From a plasmid, in assembly GCF_056712565.1 (NCBI RefSeq), contig NZ_JBWXXM010000003.1: DNA of 64,000 bases; one strand, given 5' to 3'. Position numbers: made by a program. Below, piece by piece: positions 33,001 through 36,000 of this stretch (the stretch's first letter is position 1; each line of letters opens with the position of its first letter).

Positions 33001-36000
33001 ACTGTAAAATAACAAATCATCTAAACGCCAGCTTTGTATTGAGCGCGTTGGCCAACGCCTTTATCAGCTGCGACCGCACCAGATAATTTGAATAAGATTT
33101 CCCGCATCACCTGGACATACAGGTTATTCTGTCCATACCTCATTAGTTACAACATTCACGCGTTCTGTTCCTTTATCCGGTGCCCTGTTCCAGTATATGT
33201 GCCCATATCCTGGGTTATTCAGGATAACCGCTTCCTTTTCGCCCTGTCCTGTCGTTCATATCCCCCTGGACAAAAATGCATTATCGGAAAAAATGTCCAA
33301 AATTTTTTTGGTGATCGGAATTTTTGTTGTCGGACGCACCTCTTCTTCAGGTCATAATTGCTGACACATCCCAAAAAACAGGAGCGGAGATTTAAAAATT
33401 GAGTCACTTACCCGCCAAAATTTTCCAGATTTCACGTAGCGTACCGTCGATACTGTATCCATCAACAAATGACTATTTTTTGAATGTGTCATTTCCTGTA
33501 ACCTACTGAAAAATATCAGTGAATGACAATATCGGCGACAGCATCGGAGCTGATAGCCAGTTTCCTGAATGCATATGGCCAGAACAGTAAATTTGAACCA
33601 GGTTCTCACGTCACCAGGCGACGTGTCTGGGAAACTGGTGAACAACAGGCACAGAAAAGCCCAACTTTATGGGGGTCAGTTCAGTGAGGTTGGGCTAAGA
33701 GAAACGAATGATTAACCTGTTAATCATCATTCTCAGGGATGTGGTCGCCGTTGCAAACGCGCGGATTGCAGTTCTGGAACTGATTCGCCAGTTCATCGTT
33801 TGATGACAGCGGAAACGTAACTCAGGACAGGAAGTTCCAAATAGCTCCCAGCCAGCATATGTAATTTTCAAAGGGGCAGTTGTTAACTCTGTAATAACGC
33901 CATGTAAAGTATTCCTGCCCCCTCCATGATCCTCCATAGTATTTCTTGAGTTAATTTTCAAAAAGCTTCTGATGGTGATGCTGCCAACTTACTGATTTAG
34001 TGTATGATGGTGTTTTTGAGGTGCTCCAGTGGCTTCTGTTTCTATCAGCTGTCCCTCCTGTTCAGCTACTGACGGGGTGGTGCGTAACGACAAAAGCACC
34101 ACCGGACATCAGCGCTATCTCTGCTCTCACTGCCGTAAAACATGGCAACTGCAGTTCACTTACACCGCTTCTCAACCCGGTACGCACCAGAAAATCATTG
34201 ATATGGCCATGAATGGCGTTGGATGCCGGGCAACTGCCCGCATTATGGGCGTTGGCCTCAACACGATTTTACGTCACTTAAAAAACTCAGGCCGCAGTCG
34301 GTAACCTCGCGCATACAGCCGGGCAGTGACGTCATCGTCTGCGCGGAAATGGACGAACAGTGGGGCTATGTCGGGGCTAAATCGCGCCAGCGCTGGCTGT
34401 TTTACGCGTATGACAGTCTCCGGAAGACGGTTGTTGCGCACGTATTCGGTGAACGCACTATGGCGACGCTGGGGCGTCTTATGAGCCTGCTGTCACCCTT
34501 TGACGTGGTGATATGGATGACGGATGGCTGGCCGCTGTATGAATCCCGCCTGAAGGGAAAGCTGCACGTAATCAGCAAGCGATATACGCAGCGAATTGAG
34601 CGGCATAACCTGAATCTGAGGCAGCACCTGGCACGGCTGGGACGGAAGTCGCTGTCGTTTTCAAAATCGGTGGAGCTGCATGACAAAGTCATCGGGCATT
34701 ATCTGAACATAAAACACTATCAATAAGTTGGAGTCATTACCGCCTTGACCATCAGATAGTTATTTTGGTGCTAGGGATACTGAGTGTGAACAGTTAGCGC
34801 GCGTCCTCGCCAGTTAGCTCGCTACGCTCGGTTACACGACGGCTACGAGTACTAGTGATAATTATTGACTGAGGTATGTGCTCTTCCTGTTTCCTTTTTT
34901 GATGTGTTGCTCTCATTTTAAACAACTTTGCGGTTTTTTGACTACTTTGCAATTTTGTTGTTGCTTTGCAATAAAATGCAAGATTAAATGAAAATATGCA
35001 AAGCAATGATTAAAGGATGTTCAGAATGAGACTCATGGAAACACTTAACCAGTGCATAAACGCTGGTCATGAAATGACGAAGGCTATCGCCATTGCACAG
35101 TTTAATGATGACAGCCCGGAAGCGAGGAAAATCACCCGACGCTGGAGAATAGGTGAAGCAGCGGATTTAGTTGGAGTATCTTCTCAGGCTATCAGGGATG
35201 CCGAGAAAGCAGGCCGGCTACCGCACCCGGATATGGAAATACGAGGACGGGTTGAGCAACGTGTTGGTTATACAATTGAACAAATTAATCATATGCGTGA
35301 CGTGTTTGGTACGAGACTACGACGTGCTGAAGACGTATTTCCGCCGGTGATTGGAGTTGCTGCTCATAAAGGGGGCGTTTACAAAACCTCTGTTTCTGTT
35401 CATCTTGCTCAGGATCTGGCTCTGAAGGGATTACGTGTTCTGCTCGTGGAAGGTAACGACCCCCAGGGAACAGCATCGATGTATCACGGCTGGGTGCCAG
35501 ATCTTCATATTCATGCAGAGGATACTCTCCTTCCCTTCTATCTTGGGGAAAAGGACGATGTCACTTATGCAATAAAGCCTACTTGCTGGCCTGGGCTTGA
35601 CATTATTCCTTCCTGTTTGGCTCTGCACCGCATTGAAACTGAGCTAATGGGCAAATTTGATGAAGGTAAATTGCCCACCGATCCACACCTGATGCTCCGA
35701 CTGGCCATTGAAACCGTCGCTCATGACTATGATGTCATTGTCATTGACAGCGCGCCTAACCTAGGTATCGGCACGATTAATGTTGTATGTGCTGCTGATG
35801 TGTTGATTGTCCCCACGCCTGCTGAGTTGTTCGACTACACTTCCGCTCTGCAGTTTTTCGATATGCTTCGTGATCTGCTCAAAAACGTAGATCTTAAAGG
35901 ATTCGAGCCTGATGTACGTATTTTGCTTACCAAATACAGTAATAGTAATGGTTCTCAGTCCCCGTGGATGGAGGAGCAAATTCGGGACGCCTGGGGAAGC

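Follow-up and report, generated by a model that had tools for sequence, protein, structure and literature searches.

The dql family was defined, and the dqlB-agrB pair named, by Kristiansen et al., 2016 (PMC5066626), and work on pOXA-48 (PMC12365149) and on the IncX3 plasmid pOXA-484 (PMC12317039) has established dqlB-agrB as a plasmid addiction module. In an intact cassette, the unstable AgrB small RNA (sRNA), which is divergently transcribed, pairs with the leader of the stable dqlB mRNA; this pairing blocks synthesis of a small membrane-helix toxin, and plasmid-free cells are killed. We analyzed a plasmid-borne stretch of 64,000 nucleotides (contig NZ_JBWXXM010000003.1 of assembly GCF_056712565.1; hereafter the window) in which two open reading frames (ORFs) carry the RefSeq label "DinQ-like type I toxin DqlB", with the copy 1 ORF (dqlB-1) lying 918 bp upstream of that of copy 2 (dqlB-2). 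With a probability that we put at about 0.72, the copy 2 region at 33366-33835 would be the eroded remnant of a second dqlB-agrB cassette, of another lineage than copy 1 and located in an IncX-derived mosaic block between IS1 copies on a ColV/IncFIB plasmid, and the ~130-bp homology upstream of it would belong to a separate non-coding element. The toxin part, read in this way, is an ordinary, already annotated family member turned relic.

Copy 2 and its missing regulatory parts

The features of the two toxin copies on which the comparison draws are listed here, with L numbers denoting fetched loci.

33708-33803, + strand: dqlB-2 ORF, 31 aa, WP_000609144.1 (NCBIfam NF041473; RefSeq annotation)
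33658-33696, - strand: relic of the agrB terminator with an 8-bp stem, a 23-nt loop and the tail TTTTCTGTG (aligns with the agrB terminators of mod1, L003-L008 and L053)
33697-33699, no strand: deletion junction at which the equivalent of copy 1 ~32421-32776 is absent (homology ends at 33666/33696 and restarts at 33699)
33828-33872, + strand: degenerate dqlB terminator and tail with 5/7 stem pairs and no T-run (alignment with mod1, L003, L007 and L053)
32389-32477, - strand: intact AgrB-like sRNA of copy 1 (Rfam RF02891, 64 bits)

The peptide encoded at 33708-33803, MINLLIIILRDVVAVANARIAVLELIRQFIV, belongs to the DqlB family by its hidden Markov model NF041473, scoring 58.2 bits against the curated cutoff of 35; the copy 1 ORF (32790-32885, WP_000609147.1) scores 72.4 bits. 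As the original prediction had it, the 137 nt at 33699-33835 are homologous to 32781-32917 (93% identity, ungapped, E 1e-46), and the peptide sequence, the substitutions A11D and L19R and the weak Shine-Dalgarno (SD) sequence AAGAG (33697-33701; GGAG in copy 1) are all present. The two peptides differ by V8I, A11D, L19R, I22V and D31V, and six of the seven nucleotide differences between the ORFs are non-synonymous. With D11 and R19 inside the helix, the longest uncharged run is 9 residues in copy 2 versus 13 in copy 1, and the best 19-residue hydropathy window is 1.97 versus 2.68. Both A11 and L19 are found in all canonical-type DqlB peptides from the fetched loci (some 36 copies, 8 variants). 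D11 and R19 together occur only in the truncated layout; L055, with the same truncated layout as the window, has D11 but L19.

Copy 2 was aligned with intact IncX1, IncX3 and IncX4 cassettes (L003-L008, L011-L014), the deletion architecture being based on alignment to eight intact cassettes. Homology to these runs from ~33421 to 33666, ends within the agrB terminator and restarts at 33699, 9 nt before the ATG. Compared to the intact dqlB-agrB cassettes, ~355-375 bp are missing, a stretch that comprises the body of AgrB, the promoters of both agrB and dqlB, and the entire 5´ leader including the AgrB target. Since homology stops in the agrB terminator, the hairpin 33658-33665/33689-33696, rightly recognized beforehand as a minus-strand terminator, is that of agrB, with ~17 nt inserted in its loop and the agrB body gone. 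For the copy 1 module, the agrB promoter is TTGCAA-17-TAAAAT at 32513-32485, and the AgrB target in the dqlB-1 leader lies at 32690-32713.

Searches for the lost parts gave negative results throughout. No match to the Rfam AgrB family (RF02891) was found near copy 2 at E ≤ 1, leaving the terminator hairpin alone of a divergent AgrB sRNA gene. Pairing was examined with RNAduplex for the 5´ 45 nt of AgrB-1 and of AgrB-0, the product of an orphan agrB gene elsewhere in the window, together with shuffled controls. While AgrB-1 and AgrB-0 gave -65.3 and -46.8 kcal/mol with the copy 1 leader (shuffles -31 and -27), the values with 33560-33860 were -26.9 and -23.6 kcal/mol, at the level of the shuffles, in line with the reported absence of the sRNA target from copy 2. 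A promoter scan listed no site with at least 9/12 matches between 33295 and 33900, and copy 2 has neither a leader with an AgrB target and elements that sequester the SD nor a promoter of its own. The dqlB-2 terminator, with a 3-nt loop insertion, a 3´ arm changed from CTTCCTG to CTCCCAG and a replaced T-run, was not detected by the terminator scan and does not constitute a Rho-independent terminator. The earlier statement that copy 2 lacks the 3´ hairpin of copy 1 needs correction: the hairpin is not cut off at 33835 but is homologous and degenerate, and homology to L053 extends to 33872. Collectively, the loss of the AgrB gene and target, the promoter and the leader, and the decay of the terminator, bear out the description of copy 2 as a degenerate toxin module.

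In the simplest scenario, a single deletion of ~355-375 bp would have stripped copy 2 of its AgrB body, of the two promoters and of the entire leader with its regulatory sites, joining the agrB terminator hairpin directly to a weakened SD. The dqlB-2 terminator would have decayed too, and the charged helix residues would have been gained later, D11 first and then R19. Joint loss of the toxin promoter and the antitoxin would be the only viable order, after which the ORF would have drifted or been detoxified. We infer that copy 2 is no longer an addiction module and is probably silent or harmless.

Several observations weigh against a silent relic. A promoter-like TGGACA-16-AAAAAT was found by the promoter scan at 33267-33294, with no + strand terminator before 33708, such that read-through into dqlB-2 is possible, and the dqlB-2 ORF is still intact in about 70 plasmids; as all of these are nearly identical, selection on the ORF cannot be read from them. 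It is conceivable, if rather improbable, that dqlB-2 is still expressed by read-through from this recombinase-stub promoter (~33267-33294) as the 3´ cistron of a ~550-nt RNA, unregulated by AgrB and tolerated since A11D and L19R attenuate the peptide, which would then be an attenuated or neofunctionalised small membrane protein. The location of the promoter-like site in a block conserved upstream of recombinase genes, the intact ORF and SD-like AAGAG, and the stepwise gain of charges from L055 to copy 2 would all fit such expression, whereas the stable hairpin directly adjoining the weakened SD, the decayed terminator, the complete loss of the start codon in the sister locus L053 and the excess of non-synonymous differences, as under relaxed constraint, argue for a relic. 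This is the more serious of two alternatives. The other, which we regard as highly improbable, is a new cis-antisense type I system, in which a minus-strand promoter inside the ORF together with the kept agrB terminator would generate a ~70-nt RNA antisense to the dqlB-2 SD and start codon. The geometry is suitable (predicted start ~33722, terminator 33696-33650), and V8I (gtt to att), a change confined to the copy 2 lineage, supplies the T of the -10 hexamer. The hexamers proposed for this promoter, TTGCAA-N16-GAGAAT at 33756-33729, are indeed present, with GAGAAC in copy 1, but an antisense role for them is unsupported: they match at 8/12 (15 such sites in 32000-33980 compared to 11.9 ± 4.0 in shuffles) and do not appear in the output of the 9/12 scan, the terminator, with its loop of 23 nt, has no more than four T's, and no toxin promoter is left that would need control.

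Genome pipelines label both ORFs "DqlB toxin", and counts of toxin-antitoxin (TA) systems on ColV and other virulence plasmids would consequently overstate the number of functional addiction modules. The features to check in an annotated dqlB are the sRNA gene, a leader with the target, and the promoter.

Sister loci and the origin of the two copies

Copy 2 has a sister in the metagenomic locus L053: in both, the loop of the agrB terminator is enlarged, the dqlB terminator has decayed and the peptide ends in ...FIV. L053 retains a degenerate agrB body, A11 and L19, and shows two deletions, one between direct repeats (the agrB 5´ part and the leader target), by which both promoters were lost, and another that eliminated the SD and the ATG along with six codons. 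The combination of common lesions with different deletions points to ongoing decay. The AgrB 5´ region (32431-32478) and the dqlB-1 leader target (32666-32713) in the window are 48-nt direct repeats with 81% identity, and, judged from these alignments, such AgrB/target repeats would be a built-in, safe route to self-inactivation for this TA family. The series of the intact copy, L053, L055 and copy 2 may thus offer a picture of type I TA decay without host killing, in which the toxin promoter and the antitoxin would be lost together in one step, in L053 through deletion between the sRNA and target repeats.

The window is 100% identical to pECOS88-type ColV/IncFIB plasmids and has a mosaic structure, one part being IncX4-like and another IncX1/microcin J25-like. 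The sequence from 28788 to ~33100 tracks the IncX4 plasmid NZ_CP022051.2, and 33250-33979 shares 100% identity with NZ_CP010127.1, an IncX1 plasmid with microcin J25 genes, in which the same copy 2 lies behind another copy 1 variant. Past the end of copy 2, the window contains one further segment:

33873-33972, no strand: DNA found just downstream of mcjA, the microcin J25 precursor gene, in IncX1/IncF plasmids (100% identity to L018 and L019)

This DNA beyond 33872 corresponds to a position ~50 nt downstream of mcjA in one IncX1 and one IncF plasmid; mcjA-D follow in L018 and L019, and in the window the mcjA-downstream DNA is truncated by IS1 at 33973.

The copy 2 ORF is 90.5-94.9% identical to the ORFs of many cassette lineages. 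Given that the ~93% identity between the two copies is at this family-wide level, and that their flanks are 72% identical or unrelated, the copies are not likely to have arisen by local duplication, and the proposal of a duplication followed by attenuation is not upheld in this mosaic setting. The two copies instead appear to be tandem cassettes from different lineages.

Several other features of this region were noted. The IncX-derived block at 26961-34740, which contains hypothetical genes, both dqlB copies and the orphan agrB, is flanked by two directly oriented IS1 elements and is composite-transposon-like; in NZ_CP010127.1 and NZ_OW968329.1, copy 2 is followed by the microcin J25 genes, which the right-hand IS1 has replaced in the window. 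The orphan AgrB-like sRNA gene lies at 29926-30012 on the minus strand (Rfam, 46 bits) without an adjacent toxin ORF, and its 5´ part is the AgrB-0 sequence that pairs with the dqlB-1 leader (-46.8 kcal/mol compared to -27 for shuffles). Next to it, within 29926-30095, come a tandem repeat, (CGCCTTTAA)x5, and what may be the relic of a dqlB terminator arm, although this match is weak (E 0.57); the locus may represent a third cassette of which the antitoxin was retained and the toxin lost. A recurrent hairpin motif, CTGGACAT(A/T)CAGGT.ATTCTGTCCA, was observed at 33109-33135 and 29906-29938, where it adjoins the recombinase-upstream block and the orphan agrB terminator; in L015 it is found ~80 nt upstream of small ORFs, at 412-437 and 768-790.

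The non-coding element upstream of the toxin genes

The element that precedes both toxin copies, and the sequences adjoining its second copy, comprise the following.

33426-33560, + strand: copy 2 of the element, the '130-bp segment' (72% identity over 139 columns to 32162-32297, E 1.5e-16; 92% identity to L053)
32118-32297, + strand: copy 1 of the element, upstream of the intact module (alignment)
33427-33463, + strand: core of element copy 2, AGATTTCACGTAGCG TACCGT CGATAC TGTATCCATC, including a 6-N6-6 inverted repeat (35-variant alignment)
33112-33398, + strand: non-coding region conserved upstream of ResD-family tyrosine recombinase genes of IncX4 and Enterobacter plasmids (aligns with L002, L004, L015 and L018)
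33399-33441, + strand: tyrosine recombinase stub of a TTG start and 13 codons, MSHLPAKIFQISRS (100% identity to the start of WP_000018885.1 in NZ_CP022051.2)

The homology between the two segments had been reported before and is real, though it starts ~45 nt further left than claimed, at 32118 and ~33380. The alignment of 33426-33560 with 32162-32297 contains indels, and the assignment of the segment as non-coding is confirmed by the lack of a codon signature (entropy by codon position 0.36/0.33/0.25 in the core, with no third-position excess) and by the interruption of its only long frame, by a TAG in L003 and by a 1-nt deletion causing a frameshift in L007; a small ORF in the segment was ruled out on the same grounds. 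RefSeq annotates a 55-aa 'hypothetical protein', WP_000638861.1, at 32254-32421, spanning the right part of element copy 1 and the agrB terminator, and in L007 an ORF is annotated on the opposite strand at the equivalent position; both are probably spurious calls.

Alignment of 35 variants defined a core of ~40 nt, for which the mean pairwise identity is 0.85, compared to 0.47 in the left and 0.60 in the right flank, and the left and right flank types occur in many combinations. The inverted repeat in the core is 91% paired, and three of its pairs are changed on both sides, which is modest support for pairing. A pattern scan of metagenome contigs detected the element at 71 loci, in about 55 variants, while a core scan of species-representative genomes gave two matches only. 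The 130-bp segment matches hundreds of plasmids, mostly IncX, and 1,892 plasmid records match the copy 1 stretch 32100-32390 that contains the element. On IncX1 and IncX4 plasmids, the segment is always on the far side of agrB, within a unit of ~780 bp. The element is also present without dqlB or agrB in L009, L015 and L052, often in two or three direct copies, and the gene context of the type II copies (L052) consists mostly of proteins without a Pfam match.

The element was absent from the IncL (one pOXA-48-like) and IncI1/K dqlB-agrB loci examined. This absence, together with its presence where there is no TA system, argues that the element is not part of the TA mechanism. Fold z-scores for single-stranded DNA (ssDNA) or RNA were +0.17, -0.18, -1.05 and -1.31 for the two copies on both strands, giving no stable fold, and no Rfam family matched the segment. 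A role of the segment as regulatory sequence of the toxin module is accordingly not supported, and a structured RNA or an Frpo/ssi-type ssDNA promoter or priming element was likewise rejected. A second sRNA akin to agrA, or another structured RNA or regulatory part of the TA system, is largely refuted by these same results and has very little probability left, even though the element occupies the place expected of a second agr gene by analogy with the chromosomal dinQ-agrAB locus and its 6-bp hairpin shows some compensatory change. In L019 (NZ_OW968329.1), an ISL3-family element and a ClbS/DfsB gene (1737-3621) are inserted inside element copy 2, with an 8-bp overlap (window 33457-33464) resembling a target duplication; disruption of that copy thus seems to be tolerated.

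The left side of the element is connected to genes for ResD-family recombinases. The region 33112-33665 is 80% identical to L004, and colinearity of the IncX4 plasmid with the window ends at 33441, where a 271-aa recombinase gene continues whose TTG start corresponds to window position 33399; the left flank of element copy 2 is thus the upstream region of this gene plus 14 codons. The left flank of the element in L003 and L007 corresponds to the upstream motif GCTACGTGAAAAATAAC and to CAGAATTCAC of a second ResD-family gene (41% identical). That gene is located in the window itself, at 6759-7499 next to the RepFIB replicon. In 6740-7499, GCTACGTGAAAAATAAC immediately precedes the ATG, codons 7-10 correspond to CAGAATTCAC, and CTGTATCCATAAAC is found 12 nt further upstream; these motifs recur in the element. 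In L053, the element has the left side of copy 1 but the right side of copy 2, a structure as expected from recombination between the two cores.

The element (~100-240 bp, with its core of ~40 nt) appears to lie at the edges of cassettes in IncX plasmids and in some others from enterobacteria. A role at the DNA level, either as a hot spot for recombination or as a site for a recombinase or regulator where cassettes become joined, is proposed with low confidence. One tentative form of this proposal, to which we assign a small probability, is that the core (AGATTTCACGTAGCG-N6-CGCTACTG.ATCCATC) is a ResD-family recombination site, with the recombinase gene starting inside one such site, and that direct repeats of the core bound exchangeable cassettes (dqlB-agrB, small ORFs). 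If true, this would amount to a site-specific cassette shuffling of IncX and related enterobacterial plasmids that is undescribed, with the tandem dqlB pair and the 'one-cassette' form in L053 as products. Against it, a ResD-family recombinase was found within the fetched flanks of only 6 of the 71 metagenome loci, the classical rfsF pattern, which does not resemble the core, is absent from the 64-kb window (0 matches with ≤3 mismatches), the recombinase genes carry the left half of the core only, and other mosaic breakpoints (33100-33250) fall outside the core, so that ordinary homologous recombination may explain the reshuffling. The confidence in a recombination or regulatory role is low because of these points and the lack of homology to the conserved upstream (CUP) repeats. 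The regulatory version, just as doubtful, is that the element is a promoter or operator with a leader, a CUP-like repeat that supplies the start signals of transcription and translation for downstream genes, whether recombinases, small ORFs or antisense transcription through agrB. The element begins directly after a + strand terminator hairpin in many loci, its left half corresponds to the ribosome-binding site and first codons in two recombinase subfamilies, + strand ORFs follow in the type II loci, and the CUP repeats offer a precedent (PMC6289460). Nevertheless, the 35 variants have no conserved -35/-10 pair in common, the R46 CUP region is not homologous, and in IncX cassettes the next downstream gene, agrB, is on the opposite strand.

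Other candidates were set aside. An internally deleted recombinase gene, with a 5´ stub fused to its own 3´ end, was rejected since the right part of the element has no homology to recombinase 3´ ends, and a Xer (cer/dif-like) site since, by eye, GGTGCGC matches the XerC arm only and there is no XerD arm. An oriT-like nick region (the inverted repeat followed by CATCCATC) is unlikely given the multiple direct copies per plasmid and the lack of a known match to nic sequences, and no conserved sigma-70 promoter is common to the variants of the element. Widespread in plasmids, at cassette junctions and undescribed in the literature searched, the element may provide a handle on the exchange of IncX-type accessory modules.

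Comparison with known systems

The multimer-resolution and replicon-fusion site of F-like plasmids, rfsF/ResD, is 28 bp long with the structure AGATCCGNAA-N8-TTNCGGATCT (PMC8299605). Like rfsF, the core of the element has a short inverted repeat, here with a 6-bp spacer, is found at junctions where homology changes and is related to the 5´ ends of ResD-family genes. It differs in that the core sequence is unrelated, the arms are 6-7 bp, and there is no adjacent recombinase gene in most loci; the 10-bp inverted repeats AGATCCGNAA and TTNCGGATCT with an 8-bp spacer were not found in the window. The CUP repeats of IncN plasmids, as cited from Delver and Belogurov, 1997 in PMC6289460, resemble the element in that both are dispersed, directly repeated non-coding sequences before varied plasmid accessory genes, but the element is without conserved promoter hexamers or a known regulator. 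Homology to CUP was rejected, as R46 contained no significant blastn match to the element and no core-like site with ≤9/29 mismatches.

For the toxin part, the E. coli K-12 dinQ-agrAB locus has the same architecture as the ancestor of copy 2, in which a segment of the toxin leader recurs in the 5´ part of a divergent sRNA. The copy 2 peptide is weakly similar to DinQ (NF041472, 14.4 bits, below the cutoff of 30). While dinQ is SOS-regulated and has two agr genes, copy 2 is plasmid-borne with one agr terminator left. Among the chromosomal hok/sok loci of E. coli are decayed ones, inactivated by insertion sequence (IS) elements, deletions and point mutations. Copy 2 similarly would be a type I TA relic after regulatory loss, beside an intact paralogue; it belongs to another toxin family and would have decayed by one internal deletion and point changes, with no IS in the module. 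Compared to dqlB-agrB itself, copy 2 is without the AgrB gene, the target, the promoter and the structured leader, has a decayed terminator, and carries two charged helix residues that are found in no canonical member sampled. Nevertheless, its peptide is a clear DqlB (NF041473), its agrB terminator and dqlB 3´ region are homologous to those of the family, and copy 1, in the same window, is a complete example of the system.

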